Positions 15,199 to 63,845 of a DNA stretch of 64,000 bases are shown one piece after another. Both the position numbers and the translations under genes were made by a program. Position 1 is the stretch's first letter. Every line of letters starts with the position of its first letter. This DNA comes from Anaerolineae bacterium (GTDB lineage Bacteria > Chloroflexota > Anaerolineae > B4-G1 > SLSP01), in contig DAOUBT010000004.1 of assembly GCA_034432595.1 (NCBI GenBank), positions 18,892 to 82,891 of the forward strand, in the 5' to 3' direction. The notes beneath the pieces are model-generated. The model saw only the letters and a list, made by a program, of their open reading frames with translations, was not told the origin of the DNA and made no database searches.

Positions 15199-15756
15199 AT
15201 GCGTCAGGTGTGGAAATGGCTGCTTTTGAGTGTGCTCTTGGGAGCGGGAATGGGTTTGCTGGTCAAAACGCCGGTCAAGGCCTGTTCCTGTATGCCGCCG
15301 GGCGATCCGAAAATAGAGTTGGAACAGGCCACGGCAGTTTTCAGCGGGCGCGTGTACAGCATGGAGGCTTCGGGCGGGGCGCTGTGGGTGCATTTTGAGG
15401 TCTCCGAAGTGTGGAAGGGGCCTTATCAATCCCTGATCACCGTGCGCACGGCAACCGATAGCGCCGCCTGCGGCTACACATTCGCAGAAGGCGTGGAGTA
15501 TCTTGTGTATGCCAACGGGGATACCAATGATTTACAGGTGAACTTGTGCAGCCGCACCCGTCCGCGCATGGACGCCGCCGAGGATATAGGAATCCTTGGA
15601 CCGGGGACACCTGTCAGTCAAATGGAAGGAAGCCCGGCGAAGAACACTTTTGATCCCAACCGGGTGTTGGCGCCGGTGGTGGGGATCCTCAGCGGGGCGA
15701 TTGTGGTGGGCATTTTGCTCGGCGGGTTATTGGATTTCCGGCCCGTGGTACGGTAA
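15199..15756 (+). CDS. TIMP/NTR-like (tissue-inhibitor-of-metalloproteinase-like OB-fold) secreted protein with a C-terminal membrane anchor
   Basis: GGAGG ribosome-binding site. Signal peptide ending VKA|CSCMPP, giving a Cys-x-Cys N-terminus as in TIMPs. TIMP N-domain landmarks: VFSGRV, VWKGP, AACGY, EYLVYANGD, LQVNLCS. C-terminal hydrophobic helix. Confidence 0.7.
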   Translation: MRQVWKWLLLSVLLGAGMGLLVKTPVKACSCMPPGDPKIELEQATAVFSGRVYSMEASGGALWVHFEVSEVWKGPYQSLITVRTATDSAACGYTFAEGVEYLVYANGDTNDLQVNLCSRTRPRMDAAEDIGILGPGTPVSQMEGSPAKNTFDPNRVLAPVVGILSGAIVVGILLGGLLDFRPVVR

Positions 15757-20716: not shown

Positions 20717-22303
20717 ATGGCAGGACGTTTGGGGATTGATTTTGGCACGTCGAATACGGTGGTCGCGCAGTGGGATGCCCTGGCGAAGGAGGGAAAGCCG
20801 CTGCTCATCCCGGAATACAGCCATTTCTACATGCAGGGCGGAGAATCCATCGCCGTCGTGCCCTCGCTCATCCACTATACAACGGACGGGCGGCGCTGGA
20901 TTGGCGAGCAGGTGCGACAGCAGCAATTGCTGCAAGCGCCGGGCACATTCCGCTGGATGAAGCGCTACATCACGCAGCGCAGCCCCTATCGCGTGCGCGT
21001 GGGCGAGCGCGACATCACCCCCTTCGAGGCAGCGCAGGATTTCCTGACAGCGGTGTTGCTCTTCGCTGGTCAGGAGGTGGCGTTGGAAGATGAGGAAGTG
21101 GCCTTCAGCGTGCCGGTGGAGGCCTTTGAGGACTACGAGGATTGGCTGACGGGCGTGGCACAGCAGGCCGGGATGCCGCGCTTCCGCCTGATTGACGAGC
21201 CATCAGCGGCGGCGCTGGGCTACGGCGCCCCCATCCGCCCCGGCGACGTGTACCTCATTTTCGATTTTGGCGGTGGGACGGTGCACGCGGCGATGGTGCT
21301 CATCGAAGAGGCGGAACATGCAGATAGCGGCCGCCGTTGCCGCGTGTTGGGCAAGGCCGGCGCGGATTTGGGCGGTGCGGTGGTGGATCAGTGGCTCTTC
21401 ATGGATATTCTGCGCCAACAGGGCCGCTCCGAAGGGGATGAGGTGGTGCGGCGCGTGAGCAATCTGCTGCTGGTGGAATGCGAGCGCGCCAAGATTCAGC
21501 TTTCCACACAGGAGCGGGCGTCCATCAGCGTGGTGGATCCGCAAAGTGGGGCGGCTTTAGGGGCGGATTACAGCCGCGCGCAATTCGAGAGCCTGCTGGA
21601 AGCGAACGGCGCCTTCACCACCATCGAGCGGACGGTGCGCCGCGCGCTGCACGAAGCCTACGAGCGCGGTTACGACGAGGATCGCATCAAGGCGGTGTTG
21701 ATGGTGGGCGGCAGCAGTCAAATTCCGGCCATCCAGAGCCTTTTGCAGCGCAGTTTCGGACGCGAGCGGGTCATGCTCAACCGCCCCTTAGATGCTATCG
21801 CCCGTGGCGCAGCCGCTTTCGTTGCCGGCACGGATTTCTACGACCACATTCAGCACAGCTACGCCATCCGCTACCTGAACCGCGAGAAAAACGAGCACGA
21901 TTATTGGACGATTGTCGAACGCGGCACACCCTATCCGGCAGCGCAGGTGGCGCGCCTGACGGTCAAGGCGTCGTATGATCAGCAGACGCATCTGGGTGTG
22001 GCGATTTTCGAAGTGAGCGAGACACGTCAAAGCGCCGCGGGCGCGTTCGAGCTGGTGTTCGATCCGAGCGGCGCGGCGCGGTTGGCCCCCGTCAGTGCCG
22101 AGGCCACGTATCGCCGCCAATATTTCTGGATGAACGAAAAGCAGCCCACCTTCCTGGTGGCCGATCCGCCCGCGCAACAAGGGGAAAAATGTTTTGAAAT
22201 CGTGTTCAGCATAGATGCCAACAAGCGTTTGCTGCTCACCGCGCGGGATTTGCGCACAGGTAAGCTGGCCTACAAGGATTATCCGGTGGTGAAACTGACA
22301 TAA
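20717..22303 (+). CDS. Hsp70-family protein with a complete actin-like ATPase domain but a truncated substrate-binding region (528 aa)
   Basis: IDFGTSNTVVA (phosphate-1), DEPSAAALGYG (connect-1), IFDFGGGTV (phosphate-2), VLMVGGSSQIPAIQ (adenosine motif). Only about 140 aa follow the nucleotide-binding domain. Confidence 0.85.
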   Translation: MAGRLGIDFGTSNTVVAQWDALAKEGKPLLIPEYSHFYMQGGESIAVVPSLIHYTTDGRRWIGEQVRQQQLLQAPGTFRWMKRYITQRSPYRVRVGERDITPFEAAQDFLTAVLLFAGQEVALEDEEVAFSVPVEAFEDYEDWLTGVAQQAGMPRFRLIDEPSAAALGYGAPIRPGDVYLIFDFGGGTVHAAMVLIEEAEHADSGRRCRVLGKAGADLGGAVVDQWLFMDILRQQGRSEGDEVVRRVSNLLLVECERAKIQLSTQERASISVVDPQSGAALGADYSRAQFESLLEANGAFTTIERTVRRALHEAYERGYDEDRIKAVLMVGGSSQIPAIQSLLQRSFGRERVMLNRPLDAIARGAAAFVAGTDFYDHIQHSYAIRYLNREKNEHDYWTIVERGTPYPAAQVARLTVKASYDQQTHLGVAIFEVSETRQSAAGAFELVFDPSGAARLAPVSAEATYRRQYFWMNEKQPTFLVADPPAQQGEKCFEIVFSIDANKRLLLTARDLRTGKLAYKDYPVVKLT

Positions 22304-26659: not shown

Positions 26660-29600
26660 TTACGGCAGAGGAAGTGTGAACAAGAAACGACTGCCCTGCC
26701 CCAGTCGGCTCTCAACCCAAATCGTCCCGTGATGATGCTGCATAATCTCGCGGCAAATGGCGAGGCCCAAACCACTGCCACCGCGCTGCCCCCCACCCTG
26801 CTGAAAACGTTGAAACAAACGCGCCATTTCACCCTCACGGATACCGGGACCGCTATCCGTAACACTGACCAGCACCACGGGATAGGGCGCGGGCAGACCA
26901 GTCTCGGCGCCAGGTTGACGGACCCCATACGGCGCCACCTCTGTTCCCGGTGGGAGCACCTCCGCTGCGATGACGATATCCCCATGATCGGTGAACTTGA
27001 GCGCATTGCCCAACAGATTTGTAAGTACCTGTATCATGCGATCCGCATCCCCCACCAACACCGGTAAGTCGGGCGCGATTTGCGTTCGCACCGGCACGCG
27101 CTTTTCTAAAATTAACGAGCGCAGCGCCGCTAATGTGGACGTAATCACATCCTGCAGCGTGAAGGGATCGGATTTCCACTCCAGCCGCCCGGCTTCCATC
27201 TTGGCCAGATCGAGCACGTCATTCACCAGACGGGTGAGGCGCGCGCCCTCCTGCGCTATGATGGACAGGTTGTCCGTGATACGCGCCGCGGCTTTCTGGA
27301 CTTCTGCATCATCCGCGGGTAGTTTGGGCAAGATGTGGCGCGTGAACTGCCGCCCGATAAGCTGACTGAAGCCCAGGATGGAGGTCATGGGAGTGCGCAG
27401 CTCGTGCGACACGGTGGACACAAAATCGTCCTTCATGCGCGCCATCTCCACATCCGCCGTGATGTCGTGCATCACGGTCACGACGCTTCCGCTCCAGGCA
27501 TCCTGCCCGCCGAAAGCCACCGAAGTGCTGCGGTAGATGCGTGGCGAATGGGTGTATTCCACACTCGCGCTGGTATCCGGCGTTTGTTGTGCCAGCGTCA
27601 ACGCCTCCAGCAAAGGCGGATAGGGTAACACCTCCTGTAAAGGCAACCCAATCAGGCGCGCTGCTTCATGTCCTACCATAGCACAAAAAGCGGGATTGAC
27701 AAGTTCGATGCGCCCCGCCGCATCGGTTACCACCAGGCCATCCGTGATATGGCGCAGAATGGCATCCAGCCGCGCGTGTTGTGCGCTCACAGTCTGATAG
27801 GCACGCTCCAGCTCCTGCGTGCGCGCCTGCACCTGTGCCTCCAGGGAGCGACTGTAGCGCTCCAGCTCTTGCGCCTGCTCCCTCACCCGATCCAACAATT
27901 GCAAGCGGCGTACCACCGCGCCTAACTGATGCCCCACCGTCTCGGCCAGCGCGATTTCCTCATCGCTCCAGAAGCGCGGCTGCGCATCGCCTACCAGCAT
28001 CCCGCCAATGGTTTCCCCTTGATTTTTGATGGGGATGGTGAGGGAAGAGCGGAATCCCAAACGCATCAAGAATGGACCGGTCCGGGTACGCAGTCCGTCC
28101 AGCGGCGTTGTCGTCCAATCTTGTACCGCCATCGGCACGCGCAGATCCAGTTGGGAAGCATACTCACGCGCCTCGTCAAAAACGCGCACAAAATCGGGCA
28201 GGCCACGCACGGCATACTGAGCGCCAATCCAGATGCCCCCCAGGGTGGTTTGCAGCGTTCCCATCACCAGATCCAGCACCTGCTCCAACAACCCGGCCAG
28301 GTCGTTTGCTACCGTCGCCGCCGCGATGATGGCATTCTGGGTCTCCAGGTAAGCGGCGCGACGCTGCGTCTGCTGCAGCAGGCGTGCATTCTCGATGGCA
28401 ATCGCGGCCTGAGCTGCCAGCATCTCCAGCAACACAATGTCATCCGCGCTGTAGGCGTTGGGCTGATAGCACTGGGCCGAAAGCACGCCGAAAATGCGTT
28501 GTTCCAGGCGCATGGGGACGAAGAGCAGCGAACGCACCGGCGTCGCGCCTACCTGAATCGCCTGTGCGCCGATAGCGTCCAGGCTCTGCTCCCCTATCAG
28601 CAAGGCCTGACCGGTGGTAACGACGTGCCAGCTCAGGCCCTGCCCGCGTGGTGCCCGCACGCCGGTGTACACCTGACCACGGTCCACGGCATAAACAACC
28701 TCTATGGCCTCGCCATCCTCCGTCACCACGCCCAGCAAGAAAGCATCGCAGGGCATCAACTGCTGTGCGGCGCGATGGATGGCCGCATACAGCGAGGGCA
28801 AATCGCGCACGGCGCTGATAACTTCCTGTCCCACCGCGTGGAGCACCGCGCGCCGCTGTCCGGCTTCCAGCGCGGTCTGATACAGCCGCGCGTTCTCCAA
28901 CGCAACGGCCATCTGCGGTGCCAACAGATGGAGGCGTTCAGTATAAGCCTCCTCATACAGGCCCGGCGCCCAACGCACATCCAGCACGCCCACGACGCGC
29001 GCGCCCAGCAGCAGGGGTAACACACAGCGCACGGCGGCGCGGTCCTCCTCCGGCGTGTGCCAGGGACGGCCCTCGCGCAACGCAGCGCGCACCACTTCGT
29101 CGTGGCCCTCATCAACCTGAAGATAAAGAAAAACCTCTTGTGCCTGCACCAGCCCACGCACGGCCTGCGTGATGGTCTGCAACAGCGGTTCCAGTTCGAG
29201 TTCCGCCGCCACCAGGAGATTGAAGCGCTGGATGGTTTCCAGTTCCTCGCGGCGATGCAATTCCTCGCGGTAGAGACGGTTGTTCTCCAGGGTCAGCGCC
29301 ACCTGCTCGGCGAAGAGCGCCGCCACCTGCACGTGATCAGGCGTGAGGGTGCGCGGGGTAAGCTGCTCCAAACAGAGGACGCCCCATACTTCATCGCGCA
29401 CCAGCAGGGGAACACCCATCCACGCCACCGGTTGTTCGGCGGAAGCCAGAGGGCACATGGAAGGCACGCGTTCCAGAAGCACAGGGCGACGCGCTTCCAG
29501 GACCTGCGCCAGATGTTGCTGTGGCAATTCGGCATCGGCGCAGGGCGCGTTAGCTCCTTCCGCGTTGCGCCAGCTCAAGCAATGCCAGTTCCCGGCGCGA

Positions 29601-30145
29601 CGCTCGAACAGGGCCGCCCAGCTATAAGGGACAAGGCGCTGCAAGTGTTCCAGCAGACGCGGCCACAGCGCAGCTTCATCGCGAACCACAGCGATATCGG
29701 CGCTCACGGAACACAGAATATCCGCCAGACGCCGCTGCCATTGTTCAGCCTGCAGCTCCTGTAACTGTGCCATAAGCGGCGCGAGCAGCGCGCACAGAAC
29801 GCGCGCATCGTCGGCCACGTCCGCGGAGAGGGTGTGTGCAACGTCCGGGTCCAGCGCCAGCCAGGCCAGGATGCGCCCGTCGCTGGTTATGGGCAGGGTC
29901 AGCGGTGTACCGGCGGGGGTTAGATCGGGGTTGATGTGGTACACGACATGAGCAGGGCGTTCCGTATGCCAGGCGTGCAAGACCAGCGTTACTCTGGCGA
30001 CGGGGCGCCAGGTACACAGATGTTGGGCCACCGCTTCCCCCAGGGTCAAAAGCGAGGTGGACATCAGGGCCGCGCGGAAGGCCGCCCAAACGCGCGGGCT
30101 GGGCGGATCAGCGGTTAGAGCGGCGGTTTCTGAGATGATGTCCAT
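26660..30145 (-). CDS. Multi-GAF/PAS sensor histidine kinase (1161 aa)
   Basis: At least 4 GAF-like segments. PAS domain (HITDGLVVTDAAGRIELVNPAF). H-box VSHELRTPMTSILGF. HATPase GSGLGLAICREIMQHHHGTIWVESRLGQGSRFLFTLPLP. Confidence 0.85.
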   Translation of the reverse strand: MDIISETAALTADPPSPRVWAAFRAALMSTSLLTLGEAVAQHLCTWRPVARVTLVLHAWHTERPAHVVYHINPDLTPAGTPLTLPITSDGRILAWLALDPDVAHTLSADVADDARVLCALLAPLMAQLQELQAEQWQRRLADILCSVSADIAVVRDEAALWPRLLEHLQRLVPYSWAALFERRAGNWHCLSWRNAEGANAPCADAELPQQHLAQVLEARRPVLLERVPSMCPLASAEQPVAWMGVPLLVRDEVWGVLCLEQLTPRTLTPDHVQVAALFAEQVALTLENNRLYREELHRREELETIQRFNLLVAAELELEPLLQTITQAVRGLVQAQEVFLYLQVDEGHDEVVRAALREGRPWHTPEEDRAAVRCVLPLLLGARVVGVLDVRWAPGLYEEAYTERLHLLAPQMAVALENARLYQTALEAGQRRAVLHAVGQEVISAVRDLPSLYAAIHRAAQQLMPCDAFLLGVVTEDGEAIEVVYAVDRGQVYTGVRAPRGQGLSWHVVTTGQALLIGEQSLDAIGAQAIQVGATPVRSLLFVPMRLEQRIFGVLSAQCYQPNAYSADDIVLLEMLAAQAAIAIENARLLQQTQRRAAYLETQNAIIAAATVANDLAGLLEQVLDLVMGTLQTTLGGIWIGAQYAVRGLPDFVRVFDEAREYASQLDLRVPMAVQDWTTTPLDGLRTRTGPFLMRLGFRSSLTIPIKNQGETIGGMLVGDAQPRFWSDEEIALAETVGHQLGAVVRRLQLLDRVREQAQELERYSRSLEAQVQARTQELERAYQTVSAQHARLDAILRHITDGLVVTDAAGRIELVNPAFCAMVGHEAARLIGLPLQEVLPYPPLLEALTLAQQTPDTSASVEYTHSPRIYRSTSVAFGGQDAWSGSVVTVMHDITADVEMARMKDDFVSTVSHELRTPMTSILGFSQLIGRQFTRHILPKLPADDAEVQKAAARITDNLSIIAQEGARLTRLVNDVLDLAKMEAGRLEWKSDPFTLQDVITSTLAALRSLILEKRVPVRTQIAPDLPVLVGDADRMIQVLTNLLGNALKFTDHGDIVIAAEVLPPGTEVAPYGVRQPGAETGLPAPYPVVLVSVTDSGPGIREGEMARLFQRFQQGGGQRGGSGLGLAICREIMQHHHGTIWVESRLGQGSRFLFTLPLP

Positions 30146-32707: not shown

Positions 32708-35230
32708 CTACCCGTTAACTCGCGCGGATTGGATCACCTGCTCCAGCGTAGCGGCTACAACATTGGAATCCACAGGTTTCTTAAGATAGGCCGCTGCGCC
32801 CAGAGCCATACTCGCCTCGCGTTCGTCGGCGATGGTCAGGACCACCACCGGTATGGAAGCTGTGGTCGCATCCGCCTTGAGCAGACGCAGAACTTCCAGG
32901 CCGGAAATGCCCGGCATCATCAAATCCAGAACAATAGCATCGGGATGATGCAGGCGCACCAGCGTCATGCCTTCCGCTGCATTCTTTGCGCTCAGCACAC
33001 GATAAGCGCGCTGCTCCAGCTCCTGCCGCAACCACTCCAGAATAGCAGGGTCGTCATCCACAGCCACAATGCAAGCTGGTGCGTCGGGGCGTCTCACGTC
33101 AGAGCTGGCGCCGTTACGCTGCTTCTCTTCGGATAAAAACGCAAGGCTCTGTTCCCCCGCCGGCAAGGCAAAGTAGAAAACGGCCCCGCTGGAAGGCTCA
33201 GAACGCACGGCAATATGGCCCTGATAGTGGCGCACAATATCGCGCGAAAGCGCCAATCCCAGGCCTGTACCTTTGGGTTTATCGTGGATGTAGTCCCCGC
33301 CTTGCCAGAAGCGCTCGAAAATATAAGGCTGATACTCCAGCGGAACACCAGGCCCCGTGTCGGCGACGCTGATCAAGAGACCGCCGCTTTCCGGCGTTAT
33401 CCAGTCATCCACTTTCTCGCCCGCCTGCAACGCCCGCGCGCTTACCTTCACCCAGCCCGCAGAAGTGAATTTGATGGCGTTGGAAAGCAGGTTATCCAAA
33501 ACTTGCTGAACACGCAGGGGATCGGCTTTAATCAAGGGGAGCGGGGATGCAAAATCCACCAGGATACGCAATCCTTTCTTTTCCGCCGCCTCACGGAATC
33601 CCGCCACACTTTCTTCGATGATCATCGCCGGCTCGCACATCACATCGTTCCATTCCAGCTTGCCGCTATCCATGGCCGCCAGGTCAAGTACATCGTTAAT
33701 CAGATGCGTCAGGCGCTCACTTTCCTGAATGAGGATATCGAGATTACGACTCAAACGCTCGAAAGCGCGCTTTGCTGGCTCTGGAATCAGCGTGAGCGCG
33801 GCCATGAGCTGCTCCAGAGTGCGGCGCGTGAGCTTAGCAAAGCCCAGGATGGACGTGAGCGGCGTGCGCAGCTCGTGCGAAACCGATGAGATAAAGTTCG
33901 TCTTCATGTGCGCGAGTTCCACATCGCGCGTGATGTCGTGCAACACCAGCACCGCACCCAGCCCCGTATGGGCGGGCAAGGCGCGCGCCAGCACGCGGTA
34001 GACGTGCCGGTCAGGTGCGACGAGTTGCAACTCGTGCGCTCGCTCCGGCACCTGTAGCGCCTGCTGTAACAGTTCGTGTAGACCCGTGTTGGGGAAAAGC
34101 GCTGCCAGATGGGTCGTAGAAGCGTCCGTTGCCAGCGGGAAAACCGTGCGGAAAACTTCGTTGGTGATGACCAGCCGGCCTTCGCGATCGGTCACGACCA
34201 ATCCCTCGGCAATGTTGTCCAGAATGGCAGCCAGCATTTGCTGTTTCTGTTCCAGCTCCGCCACGCGCGCCGCAATGTGCTCTTCCAGCGACTGATTCAA
34301 GTCGTACATGCTCTGCTGCGTGGCAACGACATGACGGGCCATCGTGTAGATGTCCTGCGCCATCACGACAAAGTCCACGTCCGTGCTGCCGGTGACAAAA
34401 TCGGCGCGGCTCTCTTCCATAAGGGAGCGCACCGCCTGCTGAATGTCAACATGGGCCATGCGAATCGTGCTGAGAATGAACAGGGCCAGGGCAAAGGTCA
34501 ACAGGAGTAAGCTGCCCCCCAACAGGATGACAAAGGCGCCATTCCGCGCCAGCTCTGGACGTTGCCCGAACAGAGCCGTGAGCACGATCGTCCCCGTCAG
34601 TACCGGCACGAGCAGACGGGCCATGCGCCTATCAAGACTGCCGGGAGGGTTCAGGGATAGAGGCTGACCGGAAAGGGCTAACCTATGACGCATCCGGCGC
34701 AGCGCGGGTGCCATAGCCAGTTCAGTAATCGTGCTGGCATAGGTCACGTACAGCAGCACGGCCAGCGCGCCGCCCAGGGCATACCAGCCCCAGGCCGCCC
34801 CCCGCAACGCTGCATCGAGCACGGCCAGAATGACCACCAGGCTACTCAGCACGGCGGCGATGCGCGTATAAAGGCCGGGCAAACCCTCAAGGTCTCGCGT
34901 CAGGGTGGGCAAATCTGCGGCGGGAATCTCATCCTGCCGCCAGGCTACGTTAATGCGCCGACAGGCCGGATGCGTTAATGGAGTTTCCAGCCAGCCCCCG
35001 CGCAGCAGATGGATGAGCGTGGCTATGCTCACCAATACGGCCAGCAGCACAAGCACATGCAGCAAGGACGCGCCGCTGAGTCCTGTCACCAATACGATGA
35101 AGAGAAATCCCAGCAGCGCAGCGACCTGCCCACCGAGCACGGCCAGCAAGGCAACCACCACGCTGTAGGCGAAGCGTCGTGTCAGACGAAGCACCAGACG
35201 CTCAGGTAAGCTCATGTCCGTTAGATTCAC
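32708..35230 (-). CDS. Hybrid sensor histidine kinase (multi-TM sensor, PAS, HisKA, HATPase_c, C-terminal receiver)
   Basis: H-box SVSHELRTPLTSILGF. G-box GTGLGLALSRDIVRHYQGHIAV. REC domain CIVAVDDDPAILEW...VLDLMMPGISGLEVL. Confidence 0.85.
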   Translation of the reverse strand: MNLTDMSLPERLVLRLTRRFAYSVVVALLAVLGGQVAALLGFLFIVLVTGLSGASLLHVLVLLAVLVSIATLIHLLRGGWLETPLTHPACRRINVAWRQDEIPAADLPTLTRDLEGLPGLYTRIAAVLSSLVVILAVLDAALRGAAWGWYALGGALAVLLYVTYASTITELAMAPALRRMRHRLALSGQPLSLNPPGSLDRRMARLLVPVLTGTIVLTALFGQRPELARNGAFVILLGGSLLLLTFALALFILSTIRMAHVDIQQAVRSLMEESRADFVTGSTDVDFVVMAQDIYTMARHVVATQQSMYDLNQSLEEHIAARVAELEQKQQMLAAILDNIAEGLVVTDREGRLVITNEVFRTVFPLATDASTTHLAALFPNTGLHELLQQALQVPERAHELQLVAPDRHVYRVLARALPAHTGLGAVLVLHDITRDVELAHMKTNFISSVSHELRTPLTSILGFAKLTRRTLEQLMAALTLIPEPAKRAFERLSRNLDILIQESERLTHLINDVLDLAAMDSGKLEWNDVMCEPAMIIEESVAGFREAAEKKGLRILVDFASPLPLIKADPLRVQQVLDNLLSNAIKFTSAGWVKVSARALQAGEKVDDWITPESGGLLISVADTGPGVPLEYQPYIFERFWQGGDYIHDKPKGTGLGLALSRDIVRHYQGHIAVRSEPSSGAVFYFALPAGEQSLAFLSEEKQRNGASSDVRRPDAPACIVAVDDDPAILEWLRQELEQRAYRVLSAKNAAEGMTLVRLHHPDAIVLDLMMPGISGLEVLRLLKADATTASIPVVVLTIADEREASMALGAAAYLKKPVDSNVVAATLEQVIQSARVNG

Positions 35231-38200
35231 GTTTTTCCCTCATTAAAACAATGACTTCACGCCCATGTACGGGGTGCTTGAGGCGCACCGCCTGCCAGGC
35301 ACTCTCGTCGGGACGTAGCTGGGTCATCAGCCAGCTTTGCAAGGTGACGGTCTGCCCGGTAAGCAGAGCGCTGTGCACGTCATAAGCATCCAGGACCTGA
35401 AAGCCATCGGCGTTCAGGTAGCTCATCATTCCCGCCAAAGGCGTCTCGGCGGGCAGCTCAGTGCTGCTACGATAGAGGCGCAGCAGGGTTTGGGCATGTT
35501 GCAACAGAAGGTCTTCCGCTACCGGCAGGCGCAAGCATAGATCCGCACCTCGCTGTCGGCCCAAGTCCAATTCATGCTGATGCGTAGCCAGCAGGAAGAC
35601 GGGAATGCGCAGGGTTTGCGGGTCGGATTTAAGGATGCGCAGCACGTCAAAGGCGGTGAGGTCGGTGAGGCGCGTGTTCAGTACGATCAGCGCCGGCGCC
35701 TGTTGCCGGGCCAGGGTAATGCCCTCGCTCCCGCTTTGCGCGTGCAGAACGGGATAGCCGAGAGACGGCAAATTGTCGTGCAGGGTCTGCAGGGCCGCAT
35801 CGCGCGGGCCAATCAGCAAGACTGGCGCAGAAACGCTGAGAGGACCAGTGCTACCCCGTGGGCGGCTTTCCGGCACGACGGCGCTCGTCCGCTCTTGCGG
35901 TGCGCCCTGCCAGGGCAAGGCGAAGAAAAAGGTGCTGCCACGACCAGGGGCCGAATCCACCCCAATAAACCCATGGTAGTGGCTGATGATTTCATGGCAA
36001 ATGGAAAGGCCCAGCCCTGTGCCCTGAGGTTTATCCGTGAGACCGTTGGAGGTGAGTTGCTGGAAGCGCTTAAACAGGCGCGCCTGCAATTCGGGGGCAA
36101 TGCCCGGTCCGCGGTCGCTGACGCTGACTAAGAGCGCGCCGCCCTCCGGTACAGGCCAGTCCTCTAACCGCTCGCCCGGCGCAAGCGTTTTTAAGGTGAT
36201 GGTGATACTCTCCCCCGGCGGAGAGAATTTAATGGCGTTGGAGATGAGGTTGAAGAGCACCTGTCGGACGCGCTCCGCGTCGGCGTAGAGGGGCGGAAGG
36301 GACTCCTGCACGCGCCGCCGAATGCTCAACTGCTGCTGTTCGAGCAGGGGACGCAGTTCCTCCAAAACTTGCTCCAGAAGTTGCGGCACGTGGAGCGGCT
36401 GATCGTTCCACGCCATGCGTCCGGCTTCGATGCGGGCGATGTCGAGCACGTCGTTGGCAAGCTGATTCAGACGCTGCGCCTCTTTCTGGATGATGTCGAG
36501 GTTGTTCAACACGCGCTTGAGGGCCTCCTGTACGCGCCCATTGTCCGCCGGCAGATGAGGGATGAGGTCGCGTTCCAGGTGTTTGCGCGTGACGCGGGCA
36601 AAGCCCAGGACCGAGGTAAGCGGCGTGCGCATTTCATGGGAGACAGTGCTGATGAACTCCGTCTTCATGCGGTCGAGTTCTTTTTCGTGCGTGATGTCGC
36701 GCAGCAGGGTGACGACGCCAAGTTCAGCCGCCTCCTCTGCCGCCGCTGCCGAGGCTTTAAAGCTGCGGTGATCTTCTAAGGTGATTTCGGTCATGAAGGT
36801 TGAAGCGGGGTCCCGCATGGCCTCTGTAATCAGACGGTTCAGCTCCTGTTCTGCCGCGCTCGCGCCCAGGGGACGCCCCAATATTTCGTGTGCCGGGCGG
36901 TTCAGAATCGCTTCCGCAGCAGGGTTGACCAGAACAACACTGCCATCCGGCGCCGTGACCAGGAGGCCATCCACCATGGTGCGCAGCGTCACGTCGAGTT
37001 TGCGCTTTTCCTGCGCCAGGGTATCGGCCAGACGGGCCAGTTGACGGGCCTGCTCCGTCACGTTGGCGAAGAGATGGGCATTTTCCAAAGCGACGGTAAT
37101 TTGTTGCCCCAGCGCCATAAACAGGTCCACGTCTTCCGGGGTGAAGGCGTTGACGTGTTGGGTTTCAAGGTTGAACACGCCGATGAGACCTTCGCGCCCC
37201 ATCAGGGGAATGGCCAGCTCCGCACGGATTTCCGGCATACCCGGCACGTAGCGGGGATCGAGGCTGACATCGTTGCACAGCACAGGTTTGCCACTCCGCG
37301 CCGCGGCCACCGTCAGGCCAGGCCCATCCAGAGAGAGGCGCAGATCATAGGTGCTTTCCGGATAGCCAACTTGATAGCCAATGTACAGGACTCGCGCGGC
37401 GGGGTCGAACAGGAAGATGCCCACGTGCGGATAGGTGAAAGCCTTAGCGACAGCTTCTACCACGGCCTGCATCAGCGCGCGCGGATCGAGAATGGAGGTG
37501 ATGGTATGGGAAACCTGTTGCAGAATGCTGAGACGCGCAGCCTGCGTCTGCACGCGCTCGTACAGGCGGGCATTTTGCAAGGCCACAGCAACCTGATTGG
37601 CCAGAGCCGTCAGCAACTGCGTCGCGCGCTCGTCAAAGGCATTGGCCCGGGTGCAGGCCAGATGAAAGACGCCGATAACTTTCTCGCCAGAGAACATGGG
37701 AATGGCCAGTTCCGAGCGCAGGTGAGAAACAGCCACCCCATCCGCCGGATGTTGTCGCCGCTGCGTGGTGCGCGTAGCAGCGGCCTCCGCCACCAGGCTA
37801 TGTTCCGGATTCAGAATCAGAGGGATGGGGTCTAACAGGGAAAGTGTCTCGTTTTGGGAGACATAGGAGAGATCGCCGGTGCGTTCGTCCACAAGATGCA
37901 GCGCCACCACGGGGTAGCCAAAAGTATCGCGCACGAAATGGACAATTTCATGCAACAAACGGCGCACGTCCAACAGGCCGCTGATGTGCTCAGAGGCCTT
38001 GAGCAGCACACCGAGGTCGCGAGCGTGAGCCTGCATCTGCTGATACAAACGGGCGTTGTGAACGGCGGTTGCCAGTTGCGCGGCGAAAAGTGAGGCTTTG
38101 CGCGCATCCTCCGGCGTGTAAAAGTCGGGCTCATGCTTATCCACCGTCAGCAGGCCGATGCCCTCACCCTGCACCGTGAGCGGCGCGCCAATCCAGGAGC

Positions 38201-40262
38201 GGATAGTTTTGACGCCTTCCACATCGGTGCGCTGGTGTCCCCAGGTGGGGTGTTTTTGCACATCGGGGATGACGAGGGTGCGCAGCATGCGCATGGTCTC
38301 GTGGCTGAGGTTGCTCTCTTCAGGGCCAAAGGTCGCGCCCAGCACCGTCTCTGGATGCTCGAAACCCCGACATGCCGCGATGGTGAGTTTGCCATCCGGC
38401 GTGAGGAGCAGGATGGAGGCCGAGTCAAAGGAGATGACCTGCTCCAGTTGCTCCAGGCCGCGATTGAGCACCTCCTCCAGGTCCAGGGTGCTGTTGACCA
38501 TGCGCGCCAGGTCCGCGAGCAGGGTGGCTGTGCGGCGTTCCTGCTCCGTCTGCCGGTAGAGCTGCGCGTTGTGGAGCGCCACGGCGGCCTGATGGGCGAC
38601 GGCGGTGAGCAGGCGCACATCCTCATCGCTGAAGGCATGGCGCTGCTCGCTCTCCACGTTGAACACGCCGATGATGCGCTCGCCAATGCGCAAGGGGATG
38701 GCCAGTTCAGCTTGCGTGGTCGGATCGGTGCGGATGAAATGGGGGGACTGCGTCACATCCTGTGCCAGATATACTTCGCCCGTAGCCGCGGCGTAACCCA
38801 CAATGCCCTTTCCCAAGGGGATGCGTTTTTCACGGACAGCGGGATCGAAATAGTTGGGGCTGGCTGCCACATACAGGGCCTGCTCGTTCTCATCCAATAG
38901 CAAAATTGAGGTATTGCGGAAGCCAAAGGTGGTCTCTACAGCGTTGATGATTTCCTGCAGCACCTGCATAATATCCAGCGTGGAGTTCAGACGCTGGGAA
39001 ATGCTCTGCAGAATGAGCAGCTCTTTGCGCTCGCGGATGATGTGCGCCTGCTGCCGTTTGAGCCGATCTTGCAGGCGGTTGAAGGCGCGTACCAGGTCCC
39101 CTACCTCATCATGAGAAATAATAGGCAGGGGATGCAGCTCAATTTCATCGCCGCGGCTCAGTTCGTGCAGGCGTTGTGTGAGATAGGCCATGTCGCGGGT
39201 GAAATCCACCGCTGCGGAGCGGTTGACCACAAACACAAACACAATCATCAAGCCAGCAAAAGCCCCCAAAATCAACAGGGCACGCCGCATTAACGGGCTG
39301 GCAAAGGGATTGATGCGGTACACAAACCCCACCTTCCAGGGCTCTTCCCCACTGCGATACACCGGTGAGGTCACGGCTGCCCAGGCTGGCGTTTCAATGT
39401 AAGTAGATTCCGTCATCACCCGGGACCAGTCCACCCCCACATCCTGGAAAGCGCGCGGCACCCTCGTTAAAAGTTGCCCCTCATCATCCAACAAAAAACC
39501 ATACCCCTCGATCCCCTGCAGCTCTTCCACAGTAGCCACCCAATCGGTGTTGTAGTGCAAATAGGGGAAGACATGCTGATTGAGGGTCTGTAAGAGCAAC
39601 TGGTATTTGTTGTAGAGCATGATGCGCGAGCTCTGGTAGATAATGGCGTAACCCAAGAGAGCCAGAAAGACCAGGCAGACGCTGATGAGCAGGAGCATGG
39701 TCAGCAATTGCCGGGCCACGAGGGTAAACCGTGGCCGGGTAAGCTCATCCTGGACGGCATGGGTCACCAGCAAAACCGGCATCACAAGCTGACGCAGGCC
39801 CAGGTAAATCAACAGGGACAGCGCACAGGCCACCACCAGAATCAATCCGGAAGAAGGGAGCTGCTCCTGTAGGGTATAGCGCGGATCCAGGGCTGCAGCG
39901 ATAAAATCTGATGCCAGCGTGACCACCAGTGTGATGAGAAGGGGGCGGTAGAAGAAACGGAGAGGAATCGAGAAAGCGGCCTGACGCGCCTGCAACAACG
40001 TGTTCAAAGGCGGCGTCTCGCCCGCTTGCAAGCGCCGCCCCAGCGCTTCGATAGGCTCAAAAGCCCGGTATAGGGCCCACCCCACCAGGAGTGGAACTAA
40101 CGGACCAAACAAGAGAGAATTCCTCAGCCCCAAACGAGCAGAGGTTTCCTCCTGCGCGGTCAGAATCGGGCTGATGAGGGCCAACAATACAACGCCCCCC
40201 GTCGCAATACCAGCGACGAGCAAGACAGCCTTACGGCGCAGCCCGATTAGCTCAGAAGCCAT
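35202..40262 (-). CDS. Giant sensor histidine kinase (1686 aa): TM sensor, HAMP, about 6 GAF domains, PAS, HisKA, HATPase_c, C-terminal degenerate receiver
   Basis: H-box VSHEMRTPLTSVLGF. G-box GTGLGLSICHEIISHYHGFIGV. Repeated GAF signatures. The C-terminal REC-like domain has LIVLNTRL where the phospho-Asp is expected. Confidence 0.85.
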   Translation of the reverse strand: MASELIGLRRKAVLLVAGIATGGVVLLALISPILTAQEETSARLGLRNSLLFGPLVPLLVGWALYRAFEPIEALGRRLQAGETPPLNTLLQARQAAFSIPLRFFYRPLLITLVVTLASDFIAAALDPRYTLQEQLPSSGLILVVACALSLLIYLGLRQLVMPVLLVTHAVQDELTRPRFTLVARQLLTMLLLISVCLVFLALLGYAIIYQSSRIMLYNKYQLLLQTLNQHVFPYLHYNTDWVATVEELQGIEGYGFLLDDEGQLLTRVPRAFQDVGVDWSRVMTESTYIETPAWAAVTSPVYRSGEEPWKVGFVYRINPFASPLMRRALLILGAFAGLMIVFVFVVNRSAAVDFTRDMAYLTQRLHELSRGDEIELHPLPIISHDEVGDLVRAFNRLQDRLKRQQAHIIRERKELLILQSISQRLNSTLDIMQVLQEIINAVETTFGFRNTSILLLDENEQALYVAASPNYFDPAVREKRIPLGKGIVGYAAATGEVYLAQDVTQSPHFIRTDPTTQAELAIPLRIGERIIGVFNVESEQRHAFSDEDVRLLTAVAHQAAVALHNAQLYRQTEQERRTATLLADLARMVNSTLDLEEVLNRGLEQLEQVISFDSASILLLTPDGKLTIAACRGFEHPETVLGATFGPEESNLSHETMRMLRTLVIPDVQKHPTWGHQRTDVEGVKTIRSWIGAPLTVQGEGIGLLTVDKHEPDFYTPEDARKASLFAAQLATAVHNARLYQQMQAHARDLGVLLKASEHISGLLDVRRLLHEIVHFVRDTFGYPVVALHLVDERTGDLSYVSQNETLSLLDPIPLILNPEHSLVAEAAATRTTQRRQHPADGVAVSHLRSELAIPMFSGEKVIGVFHLACTRANAFDERATQLLTALANQVAVALQNARLYERVQTQAARLSILQQVSHTITSILDPRALMQAVVEAVAKAFTYPHVGIFLFDPAARVLYIGYQVGYPESTYDLRLSLDGPGLTVAAARSGKPVLCNDVSLDPRYVPGMPEIRAELAIPLMGREGLIGVFNLETQHVNAFTPEDVDLFMALGQQITVALENAHLFANVTEQARQLARLADTLAQEKRKLDVTLRTMVDGLLVTAPDGSVVLVNPAAEAILNRPAHEILGRPLGASAAEQELNRLITEAMRDPASTFMTEITLEDHRSFKASAAAAEEAAELGVVTLLRDITHEKELDRMKTEFISTVSHEMRTPLTSVLGFARVTRKHLERDLIPHLPADNGRVQEALKRVLNNLDIIQKEAQRLNQLANDVLDIARIEAGRMAWNDQPLHVPQLLEQVLEELRPLLEQQQLSIRRRVQESLPPLYADAERVRQVLFNLISNAIKFSPPGESITITLKTLAPGERLEDWPVPEGGALLVSVSDRGPGIAPELQARLFKRFQQLTSNGLTDKPQGTGLGLSICHEIISHYHGFIGVDSAPGRGSTFFFALPWQGAPQERTSAVVPESRPRGSTGPLSVSAPVLLIGPRDAALQTLHDNLPSLGYPVLHAQSGSEGITLARQQAPALIVLNTRLTDLTAFDVLRILKSDPQTLRIPVFLLATHQHELDLGRQRGADLCLRLPVAEDLLLQHAQTLLRLYRSSTELPAETPLAGMMSYLNADGFQVLDAYDVHSALLTGQTVTLQSWLMTQLRPDESAWQAVRLKHPVHGREVIVLMREKRESNGHELT

Positions 40263-40670: not shown

Positions 40671-40984
40671 AGTTCCTCCTGATTCAACCTGCGGTGCCTG
40701 GATGTATGGGCTACAAAACCTCCGTGCCACAAGGAAACCAGGAAACTTTCCCCGGCCATCTTCGCGGTCAAACGGATTGTGCAGCCTCATCTTTATCTTA
40801 ATACAAAGCAACTTTATCATGCTCTGGAAAGTAGTCAAGTATTTTCCCCAGGCCTTTGCCCTGGCCGATGCGCCATGAGCAAACGGGGGGCATGTATGGC
40901 GTTGAGCAGACACGAGCAGCCCATGCTGGACTGGCATTCGCTATGTTGGAGCCGTGGCTAAGAGCCGTGAGCTATGAGGCAAAG

Positions 40985-41100
40985 AACATTCAGGCGGGGT
41001 GGACGTGAGTGAAGGCCATGCCTGCGCCCACCCCAATCCAGGCTGACGGTGATTTCAATCGCCATCCTGGTGCTGAAAGTAAGCCGTTACGCACAAAAAT
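40985..41100. repeat. Copy of a dispersed intergenic repeat family (core GAAGGCCATGCCTGCGCCCACCCC plus a GATTTCAA...CTGGTGCTGAAAGTAAGCC arm)
   Basis: Shares its core and flanking arms with the copies at 53921-54110, 56330-56450, 59690-59880 and 63765-63845. Confidence 0.6.
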
Positions 41101-52888: not shown

Positions 52889-53240
52889 TCATGCCTCCTC
52901 TTTTTAAATTCGCCGCATTCCACATTATATGCCGGGATGGGCTTTCGTCAAGGCAGAAACGTTGGTGTCCCGGCATCGGCCTGAGTTTCAAGAACGTGGT
53001 TCTCTTTTTGCACATTCTACGCTATACTGAAGGTAATCTTCAGTGTCTCGACGGGAAAGGTTAACCGCACAAGACAAACCGGCCTCTGCCGATTCAAACG
53101 ATAAGCTCAGGCTCGCCGATGGGATTTGCCGGCCACAAACCGGCGCATAGCGGATTGCCAACAAATGCCATCCGCTGCGTTAAAAGTAACTCTGACCAAC
53201 TACGCTCAGGCTCACCGGATTCGTCTTGAAAGGAGAAAGG

Positions 53241-53918
53241 ATGAATAGCAGCGAATTCATCATCTTGTTTATCACCACAGGCATCACCGTGGTGATGGTG
53301 GGAGTCATCGTGTACCTTTTCTATCAGCAGAAGAAGCGCCGCGAAGCCATCCGGGCTTTTGCCGATAGCTCCGGCTATACCTATAGCGAAGAAGAAGACG
53401 CGCTTGCCGAAGCCCTGTCGGCGCGCGGATTCACGCTTTTCCAACACGGACACGGTAAGCACGTCAGCAACGTGGTGCGCGCCAGACTTGAACGCAGCGA
53501 CGTGCTGCTGTTCGATTACCGTTACACTATCGGCGCGGGCAAGAATTCCCACACCTACCATCAAACCGTCCTGGTGTTTACCCATCCGGAAACGGCGCTG
53601 CCGCACTTCAGCCTCCGTCCCGAAAAGTTCTGGGACAAACTCGCCGATGCACTGGGCAGTAAGGATATCAACTTTCCCGAAGCGGAAGTTTTCTCCAAAC
53701 TGTACCGCCTCAACGGAGAGGATGAAGAGGCTGTACGCGCGCTTTTTGATGGGGAAAAACTGGACTACTTCACACAAAACCCCAATCTCTACATCGAGGC
53801 GGCGGGTGATACGTTCCTGTATTACCGGTTGAGCCGTCTGGTCAAAGTGGAAGAACTACCCGCCTTTATCGAGGCCGGGCTTGAGGTCTGGCGCATGTTT
53901 AAACAAGACGTGTGGTAA
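53241..53918 (+). CDS. Hypothetical membrane-anchored protein (single N-terminal TM helix)
   Basis: AAAGGAGAAAGG ribosome-binding site. TM helix FIILFITTGITVVMVGVIVYLF. No domain recognised. Confidence 0.5.
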   Translation: MNSSEFIILFITTGITVVMVGVIVYLFYQQKKRREAIRAFADSSGYTYSEEEDALAEALSARGFTLFQHGHGKHVSNVVRARLERSDVLLFDYRYTIGAGKNSHTYHQTVLVFTHPETALPHFSLRPEKFWDKLADALGSKDINFPEAEVFSKLYRLNGEDEEAVRALFDGEKLDYFTQNPNLYIEAAGDTFLYYRLSRLVKVEELPAFIEAGLEVWRMFKQDVW

Positions 53919-53920
53919 CG

Positions 53921-54110
53921 GCTCACCCTGTCTGGGTTACGATGCAATAGGCCCTTCAGGCGGGGGTGGGCTAAGGCAATACCTTCGCCCACCCCAGGCA
54001 TCCAAAAGGTGTTGAAAGCATCGGATACCCTATCCGGGCTGGCGGTTAGAATCGCGCCGGCACGATTTCAAGCGCTGTTCTGGTGCTGAAGGTAAGCACG
54101 ACGGTGGTAA
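53921..54110. repeat. Best-preserved copy of the dispersed intergenic repeat family (core CTAAGGCAATACCTTCGCCCACCCCAGGC)
   Basis: See the dispersed-repeat finding. Confidence 0.65.
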
Positions 54111-54113
54111 CTC

Positions 54114-54166
54114 AAAAGAAAAACAGCGCGCCGCGCCTCAAGCCTGCTTGAGGCGCGGTTTTTTTA
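54114..54166. terminator. Bidirectional intrinsic terminator (A-tract, 12-bp perfect stem, T7 tract)
   Basis: aaaagaaaaacagcgcg-CCGCGCCTCAAG-cctg-CTTGAGGCGCGG-ttttttt. Sits between convergent genes ending at 53918 (+) and 54217 (-). Confidence 0.8.
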
Positions 54167-56202: not shown

Positions 56203-56329
56203 CCCTACCTCCCATGATAAGCCAACTTAAGGTGGAACGGCTTATCGGCAGCACCACAACAGAGATTGAAATCGCCGCCAAGGCCTTTTCCTCAGGTCGC
56301 GATCGTGCCATGCGTAGATACCTGCAGGG

Positions 56330-56450
56330 TACCAGCCCGGATAGGGTATCCGAAGATTTCAACCCTCATGGGGTAGGCAAAGGCAATACCTTCGCCCTCC
56401 CCACCCCGCCTGAATGTTCTATTGCACTGTAACCCAGGCAAACTGAGCCG
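56330..56450. repeat. Copy of the dispersed intergenic repeat family (core GGCAAAGGCAATACCTTCGCCCTCCCCACCCC), with arms in the opposite orientation to copy 53921-54110
   Basis: See the dispersed-repeat finding. Confidence 0.6.
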
Positions 56451-56559
56451 TTACCTTAAGTTGATAAAGTCACTCAACTCCAGAGAACGCAAAATCTGCA
56501 GGGCAGAAACTTGAGCGATCACCTCCTCCGCTCGTCTCACGCCCCCACCCTATCCCACG

Positions 56560-59689: not shown

Positions 59690-59880
59690 GGTAGCCCTTG
59701 AGGCCGCCAACGTTAAGGTGCCGATTCAAAAGGCGTCAACATGCGGTAGGCGCTGGCAAGGTCGGATACCTGTGCAGGCCAAAAGGGTGGGAGAAAGCAA
59801 TGCCTTCTCCCACCCCACAATGCTTTCGCCCGCCCCAATGCCCTCGCCCACCCGCATTGACAGGCTTTTGCAGTCGCGTC
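59690..59880. repeat. Copy of the dispersed intergenic repeat family, with two tandem core variants (GAGAAAGCAATGCCTTCTCCCACCCC and CAATGCCCTCGCCCACCC)
   Basis: See the dispersed-repeat finding. Confidence 0.6.
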
Positions 59881-63628: not shown

Positions 63629-63764
63629 ACAGGTCTGAACCCCATGTGAACAACAAGGGCGAACCAGCCGGCGCCGGTCCGCTCCTATTTCCCAACTTCT
63701 GAAATACCCGCTCCCTATGGCACAGAGCTGCCCCTTATGCTGTTTTATGCCGCTTCGTACCGGC

Positions 63765-63845
63765 TCACTCTATCTGGGTTACGGTGCGAGGCGGGGTAAG
63801 GGTGAGCGACGGCAATGCCTTCGCCCACCCAGGCCCCCCATTGAT
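63765..63845. repeat. Copy of the dispersed intergenic repeat family (CTGGGTTACGGTGC...GACGGCAATGCCTTCGCCCACCCAGGC)
   Basis: See the dispersed-repeat finding. Confidence 0.6.

Follow-up and report, generated by a model that had tools for sequence, protein, structure and literature searches.

In a 64-kb stretch of the genome of an Anaerolineae bacterium (contig DAOUBT010000004.1; the whole stretch is here called the window), five loci carry copies of a repeat built around a short G+C-rich palindrome. The repeat family is genuine and new as a family, it is of known kinds, and it is not a new RNA gene. The best explanation, and in our judgment a probable one, has two layers: a palindrome of the repetitive extragenic palindrome (REP) type is nested in a unit resembling a miniature inverted-repeat transposable element (MITE). 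The sequences support classing the core as a REP-type element, given its dispersal in Chloroflexota, its compensated hairpin, and its link to genes for REP-associated tyrosine transposases (RAYTs). They likewise support a MITE assignment for the ~200-bp unit, through its terminal inverted repeats (TIRs), its 8-bp duplications, and its absence at syntenic sites of sister species. The original prediction offered a MITE or a REP-like element as alternatives. Each label fits at its own level: the 31-nt palindrome behaves as a REP, and the ~200-bp unit as a MITE.

The core palindrome and its pairing

With up to two mismatches allowed, the core pattern GGCAATRCCTTCGCCC matches the window 6 times where 0.29 matches are expected; among 100 shuffles, none gave six or more. 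The match at 49833 lies within coding sequence and is noise, that is, a chance match rather than a family member. A covariance model built from the core, R1, was run without filters and finds exactly five significant copies, here labelled A to E. All lie within 40–64 kb of the window, a density of five palindromes per 24 kb, and none lies in 1–40 kb. All five are located between open reading frames (ORFs), so the dispersed intergenic family with a common core that was predicted from the window does exist. A repeat finder also groups a 34-nt block as five copies. The notion that the similarity is coincidental G+C-rich low-complexity sequence retains practically no probability. The genome is indeed ~60% G+C, and half-site matches outside Chloroflexota are chance matches in coding sequence, but the excess of matches, the R1 E-values (1e-10 to 1e-12), and arms of 32–57 nt in common at 81–94% identity refute the notion, and it is further contradicted by a 31-mer identical in dozens of other genomes.

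The consensus core is a near-perfect 31-nt palindrome, GGGTGGGCGAAGGCA-A-TGCCTTCGCCCACCC, with 15-nt arms around one central base. Its stem of 14–15 bp gives it the length and the G+C-rich stem-loop of a REP. The stem-loop proposed earlier, GGC.AAGG / CCTT.GCC, is present as the tip, but it is only the apex of this far longer stem. The C-rich tract said to follow the core is no tail; it is the 3′ arm of the stem, where CGCCCACCCC pairs with the upstream GGGGTGGGCG (a partner also given as GGGGTGGG). Read on the element strand, the loop is CAATA in copy A and TATTG in copy B. GTGG (46/56 copies) or GTAG (10/56) occupies palindrome positions 3–6, inside the stem and paired with CCAC/CTAC; since the search pattern prescribed the right arm of the palindrome, the pairing statistics there carry a bias. 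None of the five window palindromes is followed by the T-run of an intrinsic terminator. Nor do the copies form REPINs: each window unit holds one palindrome, and elsewhere the palindromes are singlets or tandem half-sites.

An R1 search of 480 kb gave 145 matches for alignment, both strands counted. In this alignment, 95.8% of cells are paired and both sides have changed in 8 of the 14 stem pairs. Compensated cells number 56 against 12.2 in shuffles, a count that 0 of 500 shuffles reach and that stands well above all slid controls. Diverged variants, e.g., GGGTAGCCGAGGGCAATGCCCTCGGCTACCC and GGGTGGGCAACAGGGATGCTGTTGCCCACCC, remain perfect hairpins. Thus, complementarity is maintained, as expected of an element that works in hairpin form, be it in single-stranded DNA or in RNA. 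The covariance model, suggested earlier as a check, therefore both recovers the five window copies and reveals compensatory changes in the core hairpin.

Arms around the core were also predicted, and they are real, but they are not common to every copy. The 5′ arm, CTGGGTTAC.., is present in A, B, and E, and the 3′ arm, GATTTCAA..GGTGCTGAARGTAAGC, in A, B, and C; copy D shares only the core. The repeat finder reports three inverted matches: 53914–53970 with 56399–56455 (57 nt, 81%), 54011–54042 with 56332–56363 (32 nt, 94%; the middle block of A and B), and 41044–41088 with 56236–56280 (45 nt, 76%). A related fragment had been placed at 52990–53040. It shares only ~10 nt (CTGAAGGTAA), neither BLAST nor R1 finds it, and we reject it as a member of the family.

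The positions of the window copies are mixed: some are 3′ of genes, some between co-directional genes, and some between divergent genes. Nothing therefore speaks for the regulator-binding site that was the third alternative of the original prediction. The flanking ORFs encode ordinary chromosomal proteins, namely EF-P, a PLD-like protein, a dual-specificity phosphatase, a HerA-type ATPase, histidine kinases, and a response regulator. The adjoining genes are unrelated housekeeping or signalling genes.

The MITE-like unit and its insertion sites

Copies A, on the plus strand, and B, on the minus strand, can be aligned over their whole length. Their loci were correctly recognized at the outset, but the units are longer than first drawn: A spans 185 bp (53915–54099, delimited by the alignment with B and by the repeat finder), and B spans 221 bp (56234–56454). 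The order of the unit is an end, GTAACGGCTCA.., an arm, CTGGGTTAC..GCAATAG..TTCAGGCGGGG, the palindrome, a small hairpin, CGGATAcccTATCCG, a variable stretch, and GATTTCAA..TGGTGCTG..GTAAGCCGTTAC. The unit ends are mutual inverted repeats of 12–15 bp, GTAACGGCT(C/T)A(G/C)TTT. As in a MITE, the unit is small, non-coding, and bounded by TIRs, with no ORF confined to it. An 8-bp target-site duplication, also typical of a MITE, accompanies the three elements examined, i.e., A, B, and a homologue in the sister-species locus L084.

Copy A consists of the 5′ TIR GTAACGGCTCAC, the 5′ arm, the REP palindrome, the CGGATAcccTATCCG hairpin, and the GATTTCAA..GGTGCTGAAGGTAAGC arm; its 3′ TIR has lost 4 nt (GTAAGC[CGTT]AC). 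The palindrome, GGGGTGGGCtAAGG-CAATA-CCTTcGCCCACCCC, extends from 53962 to 53996 on the plus strand (R1 51.7 bits, E 5.6e-12). The left target-site duplication, GACGTGTG, lies at 53907–53914, and the right one, GACG-GTG, at 54100–54106, a match of 7/8 with one indel. In an alternative parse, an exact 8/8 repeat, GTGGTAAC, is found at 53912–53919 and 54104–54111. Under either parse, an 8-bp direct repeat brackets copy A.

The start of copy A falls within the last sense codon and stop (TGG TAA) of the ORF at 53226–53918, and the element's own GTAA regenerates that end. Excising A and one duplicate restores ...GAC GTG TGG TAA CTCAAAAG.., which runs into a canonical intrinsic terminator with a 13-bp stem and T7 (54130–54159, plus strand), located directly 3′ of A. 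This restored site, with a stop closely 5′ of a terminator, reads as a natural pre-insertion state. Since the terminator lies beyond A, the element sits in the 3′ untranslated region (UTR) and is not itself the terminator. The 230-aa gene upstream has no relative above 41% identity besides those in the same species and is therefore useless for empty-site analysis.

Copy B is bounded by the TIRs GTAACGGCTCAG and GGAACGGCTTATC and has an additional insert of ~45 nt in its 3′ half. Its target-site duplication, CTTAAGGT at 56226–56233 and CTTAAGTT at 56455–56462, is 7/8 identical; the chance of at least 7/8 matches at fixed positions is ~4e-4. The palindrome (56369–56403) is flipped relative to the arms of B: the arms are on the minus strand, whereas R1 gives the core 45.8 bits in the plus orientation, against 17.0 in the minus. 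The inversion of arms against core in this copy, noticed from the start, is thus borne out.

The remaining copies are partial or degenerate. Copy C (~140 bp, 40951–41090, plus strand) retains an intact 3′ arm and TIR (..GTAAGCCGTTAC), but its 5′ end is degenerate. It lacks the middle hairpin module, and its palindrome (40995–41035, plus strand) is degraded, with a weak R1 score of 19.7 bits. Copy E (63757–63836, plus strand) is a 5′ half only, with the GTACCGGCTCAC.. TIR, the CTGGGTTACGGTGC arm, and the palindrome (63798–63832, plus strand, 49.7 bits); its 3′ half is gone. Copy D (59783–59853, plus strand) has only the core in common with the other copies, and its arms are not recognizable. 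The two cores assigned earlier to 59690–59880 turn out to be one full palindrome, at 59785–59815 (R1 match 59783–59817, 49.8 bits), and two tandem right half-sites, at 59821–59835 and 59839–59853, with a spacing of 18–20 nt. Similar tandem half-site arrays, with a period of 18–26 nt and beside one complete palindrome, are seen at L016:331–424, L033:1008–1077, and L029:4716–4788, as at 59801–59853 of the window. These arrays suggest slippage or repeated partial copying.

All five window cores score best on the plus strand, although the arms of B, and possibly those of D, are on the minus strand. The shared orientation could be due to chance (~1 in 8 to 1 in 16) or to a strand-specific process, e.g., replication-linked flipping of the hairpin. 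GC skew gave no information on the replication strand of the window.

A contig of the same species from another run (SRR26992862) has its end inside copy A (L080:1657–1757), as expected if the repeat breaks short-read assemblies. The 3′ arm of its palindrome has one C-to-T change, which would give a G.U pair in RNA.

The original prediction also considered a structured small RNA. In that reading, the ~200-nt unit would be a structured non-coding RNA or a cis-acting 3′/5′-UTR element, its terminal pairing a closing stem and its palindrome a functional hairpin; we consider this improbable. Both full copies fold better than shuffled sequences (z −2.66 and −3.69), but the palindrome and terminal repeats explain these scores. 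When the three sequences A, B, and C are folded jointly with RNAalifold, only the palindrome, the terminal pairing, and weak helices emerge; outside the palindrome no pair is compensated, and the covariation term, +1.79, is unfavourable. Each of the copies A, B, C, and E points the same way as an adjacent gene, yet the argument is a weak one, with four copies of which two lie in convergent spacers. Being between a stop codon and a terminator, A is very probably transcribed. However, flanking 8-bp direct repeats are a signature of transposition and not a feature of RNA genes. The flipped palindrome of B would alter an RNA loop; such a flip is easy for DNA palindromes but awkward for a conserved RNA. 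The truncations also differ, with C lacking the middle and E the 3′ half. The Rfam check that had been recommended gave no match in the window at the gathering cut-off and noise only at E up to 5; a tRNA/tmRNA scan of the window gave nothing.

The interpretation as a MITE carrying a REP draws further support from sister species. The best named relatives of the adjoining PurA are ~72% identical and come from Anaerolineae metagenome-assembled genomes (MAGs), while three sister lineages have PurA identities of 90–93% and the same gene order. The HerA-phosphatase spacer, which holds copy B, is 357 nt in the window and 63 nt in L084, where the copy is absent. Copy E is missing from the corresponding PurA-kinase spacer of L088, L084, and L085: in L088 this spacer measures 92 nt and is free of any element, and in L084 and L085 unrelated G+C-rich hairpins take its place. 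R1 finds no core copy in the sister loci L084, L085, and L088 (38 kb), and a search for half-sites across the full set of five sister loci gave chance matches only.

L084 does contain two copies of a MITE backbone homologous to the window unit. The parts in common are the GTAAC.. ends, the CTTCGGGTATCC hairpin module, GGCGATTTCAATCGCTAT, and ..GTAGGCAGTTAC. The internal hairpins differ from those of the window and contain GTAG, and the copy at 20955–21150 has a perfect 8/8 duplication, AAAAATTC/AAAAATTC. It follows that the backbone with its TIRs and target-site duplication is a MITE family common to the sister species, and that the Chloroflexota palindrome is the cargo of the window species' version. 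L084 also has different G+C-rich hairpin repeats of its own, e.g., the GTAG-type GGGGCGACC..GGTCGCCCCTAC and GGGGCGCGGGC.. (hairpin-repeat and MITE positions 20785–20815, 11320–11385, 20955–21150, and 15207–15440).

The hairpins might instead be kept mainly for a host function, as a terminator, an mRNA-stabilizing 3′ hairpin, or a site for a nucleoid or regulatory protein. Host roles of this sort have been proposed for the REPs and bacterial interspersed mosaic elements (BIMEs) of E. coli. The hairpin is very stable, its complementarity is kept by compensatory changes, several copies lie 3′ of genes (A and E, and many at other loci), and near-identical sequence in distant Chloroflexota suggests a conserved recognizing protein. 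Nonetheless, we find the explanation unlikely here. The best-supported conserved partner is the RAYT itself, no U-tract follows the palindrome, and A has a separate canonical terminator downstream. Copies also occur in divergent promoter regions (C and D) and, elsewhere, in frame in coding sequences. The copies are missing from sister species that have these genes, so no single copy is required.

Other Chloroflexota and the RAYT genes

A core scan with GGCAATRCCTTCGCCCNCCC against one genome per species returned 74 loci. The complete palindrome is present in ~45 of these, all from MAGs, labelled Anaerolineae, Chloroflexia/Roseiflexus, Thermoflexales/Thermoflexus, Ca. Roseilinea, Ca. Brachytrichaceae, or Chloroflexota. 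Matches outside Chloroflexota and in Dehalococcoidia are half-sites in coding sequence without the left arm. At least 10 MAGs have 2–12 exact 20-mer copies each, and several loci have further copies nearby. In the 56 distinct palindrome copies collected from Chloroflexota MAG loci and the window, the 8 bases on either side are random, while the left arm is almost invariant though it is outside the search pattern. Thus, outside the window, the dispersed unit is the palindrome alone. The window arms occur in none of the palindrome-bearing Chloroflexota loci. A metagenome scan with the 18-mer of the middle hairpin gave only four chance matches; a 3′-arm pattern might have fared better. The palindrome has 0 matches in the IMG/VR viral contigs, i.e., there is no sign of a phage origin, and our literature search found no paper containing its sequence. 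In other genomes, some copies lie inside genes; naive ORF calling placed 29 copies of the MAG loci inside ORFs, many of them spurious or antisense, and this unreliable tally was not used.

A second, unrelated composite places the core between outer inverted repeats, AGAGCCTATCCGAAAA ... TTTTCGGATAGGCTCT. It is seen in a MAG labelled Roseiflexus and in some Anaerolineae MAGs (L058:3205–3300, L067:3700–3800, L072:2740–2840, L031:7590–7680, and L052:4720–4790).

Enzymes of the RAYT class (HUH/Y1) bind and cut REP hairpins in single-stranded DNA. Clustering of the ORFs adjacent to palindromes yielded one recurrent protein, with a match to Pfam Y1_Tnp (L029:4421–5086 and L055:127–837); the first cluster obtained was an antisense artefact family and was discarded. 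Against NCBIfam NF047646, the REP-associated tyrosine transposase model with a cut-off of 80, the two genes score 84.6 and 86.2 bits, respectively. Their proteins have the RAYT motifs, namely the HUH motif (MPDHIHLL) and the tyrosine motif YIHANPVRAGL. By tblastn, the RAYT gene is present in 7 loci chosen by palindrome only, from at least 5 MAGs. There are ~65 close RAYT homologues, some of which are labelled RAYT by their sources.

The association also holds in the other direction. Two loci, together 34.5 kb long, were chosen by protein: L081, from a complete Ca. Roseilinea genome, and L083. R1 matches them three times, each time within a RAYT gene of 0.6 kb, and 25–29 nt upstream of each RAYT start codon there is a half-site. 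In other Chloroflexota, the palindrome is thus concentrated within and right beside the RAYT gene; it is found at the 5′ flank and at the 3′ end of the RAYT gene, which is the arrangement expected of a REP and its RAYT. In the window genome, no RAYT gene was found in the 64-kb window or in L079.

The RAYT genes at L029:4421–5086, L055:127–837, L081:10001–10618, and L083:10001–10603 are all embedded in CRISPR-Cas loci. Cmr or CARF genes lie upstream and csx15 lies directly downstream. The cas1-cas2-cas4 genes follow RAYT-csx15 immediately in L055 and L083; in L081, a block of type I genes intervenes. The palindrome occurs in frame in both RAYT and Csx15, and its translation reads (V/A)GEG(N/I/S)A(F/V)(A/G)(H/Y)P; in RAYT it occupies two fixed sites, with a copy number that varies. 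Such in-frame palindromes are located at L029:4716–4788 and 5013–5043 and at L055:431–527, 756–790, and 1135–1165 (proteins P0046–P0102). More distant RAYTs are without these inserts. L055:3385–4590 is a CRISPR array with 37-nt repeats, and its trailer-end spacer slot, 4524–4554, is filled by the palindrome, adjoining a degenerate terminal repeat. Either an insertion or an old spacer of self origin could account for this palindrome. A CRISPR-repeat origin of the palindrome was considered and rejected, the array repeat of L055, GTTGCAATCCCCTCGATCCGCTTGAGGATACTGAAAG, being unrelated. Our literature search found no paper describing a RAYT as a component of a CRISPR locus.

These observations raise the possibility, to which we give little credence, that the palindrome is functionally tied to CRISPR-Cas. 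Single-stranded DNA hairpins would be processed by the HUH enzyme, either to serve spacer acquisition or in competition with it, and the genomic copies, those of the window among them, would be its footprints. The grounds for it are that RAYT is conserved in an adaptation-side operon (RAYT-Csx15-Cas1-Cas2-Cas4) of Chloroflexota type III/I loci, and that the palindrome lies in frame in RAYT and Csx15 and in the trailer-end spacer position of one array. Such a tie, if true, would explain how one sequence is common to several classes, carried by horizontally mobile CRISPR-Cas cassettes. The CRISPR-embedded, cognate-looking RAYT with its in-frame repeat is the part of this work most worth following up.

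Several findings weigh against a REP nested in a MITE, the reading that we prefer. The 64-kb window and its 7.8-kb extension encode neither a RAYT nor a DDE transposase, so the link to an enzyme is indirect in the window genome. The palindrome-associated RAYT subfamily is always inside CRISPR-Cas loci, and its role may be CRISPR-related rather than that of moving repeats. Only two copies of the MITE are full length, the right junction of copy A needs two small deletions in the preferred parse, and the copy counts for the source genome cover the 64-kb window only. The intergenic DNA of the sister species is too diverged for exact empty sites or base-by-base alignment. Finally, GTGG/GTAG is paired within a symmetric stem in the window and the copies are singlets, whereas classical REPs have an unpaired GTAG tail and often form REPINs.

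Known systems and wider context

REP and REPIN elements and RAYT transposases were reportedly described by Nunvar in 2010 and by Bertels and Rainey in 2011. Like these REPs, the window core is a 31-nt G+C-rich palindrome in multiple copies, all five of those in the window being intergenic, with GT(A/G)G near its 5′ end and compensatory changes in its stem. Further, in other Chloroflexota, a gene scoring above the NCBIfam RAYT cut-off is accompanied by the repeat on its 5′ side and contains it in its 3′ end. The differences are several. The core palindrome is near-perfect and symmetric, with GTGG/GTAG base-paired and not in an unpaired tail. Its copies are singlets or half-site arrays rather than doublets. 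Nearly the same core occurs in several Chloroflexota classes rather than in one genus, the core-linked RAYT sits inside CRISPR-Cas loci with the repeat in frame, and in the window the REP is a passenger in an element with TIRs and target-site duplications. Among cultured Chloroflexi, GTAG REPs have been listed in Chloroflexus aggregans and Thermomicrobium roseum (Di Nocera et al. 2013, PMC3733652).

The unit also recalls DDE-type MITEs. It is 185–221 bp long and non-coding, lies at intergenic sites, has copies (B and E) that are absent from the syntenic spacers of sister species, and has decayed partial copies; an internal REP-type palindrome module sets it apart from them. For IS66, a passage in PMC11946415 that cites Ross et al. 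2021 gives inverted repeats starting with GTAAGCG and 8-bp direct repeats for the family. TIRs starting with GTAA and 8-bp duplications are the likeness to the family as that passage describes it. The unit ends are GTAACGG/GTAACT, not GTAAGCG, an autonomous partner was not found, and there is no transposase in the window. GTAA ends and an 8-bp duplication thus make up the whole of the apparent resemblance to IS66, which is only a lead.

With E. coli BIMEs, the unit has in common a REP combined with other short conserved modules in a fixed order, in intergenic positions, often after genes. BIMEs, in contrast, are without TIRs or target-site duplications and are made of alternating REP types. 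The Rickettsia palindromic elements (RPEs), said to have been described by Ogata et al. in 2000, are reportedly 100–150 bp long and not RAYT-linked. The in-frame palindromes in the RAYT and Csx15 genes of other Chloroflexota resemble RPEs, but the five window copies are all intergenic.

We suggest the following mechanism. The palindrome would fold as a very stable hairpin in single-stranded DNA or RNA, and a RAYT is the candidate to act on it. The MITE would have spread into intergenic DNA by cut-and-paste, with a DDE transposase having an IS66-like end signature as its candidate mover, and would then have decayed into the partial copies C, E, and D. Effects on neighbouring genes, such as a stable hairpin in a 3′ UTR, would be a by-product.

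Annotators should mask these stretches as repeats rather than record them as small RNAs or regulatory sites. The repeat also explains assembly breaks in the window organism, as in the contig ending inside copy A. For Chloroflexota, where such elements have barely been described, the family provides a concrete REP with a consensus and a covariance model, and it exhibits a REP as cargo inside a MITE with TIRs and target-site duplications.

The rest of the window differs in layout from the repeat-bearing part. The first 40 kb is almost without intergenic space, which may be why the repeat is absent there. The long ORFs of the window are at 35–8704 (plus strand, 2889 aa), 35202–40262 (minus strand, 1686 aa), and 26660–30145 (minus strand, 1161 aa).

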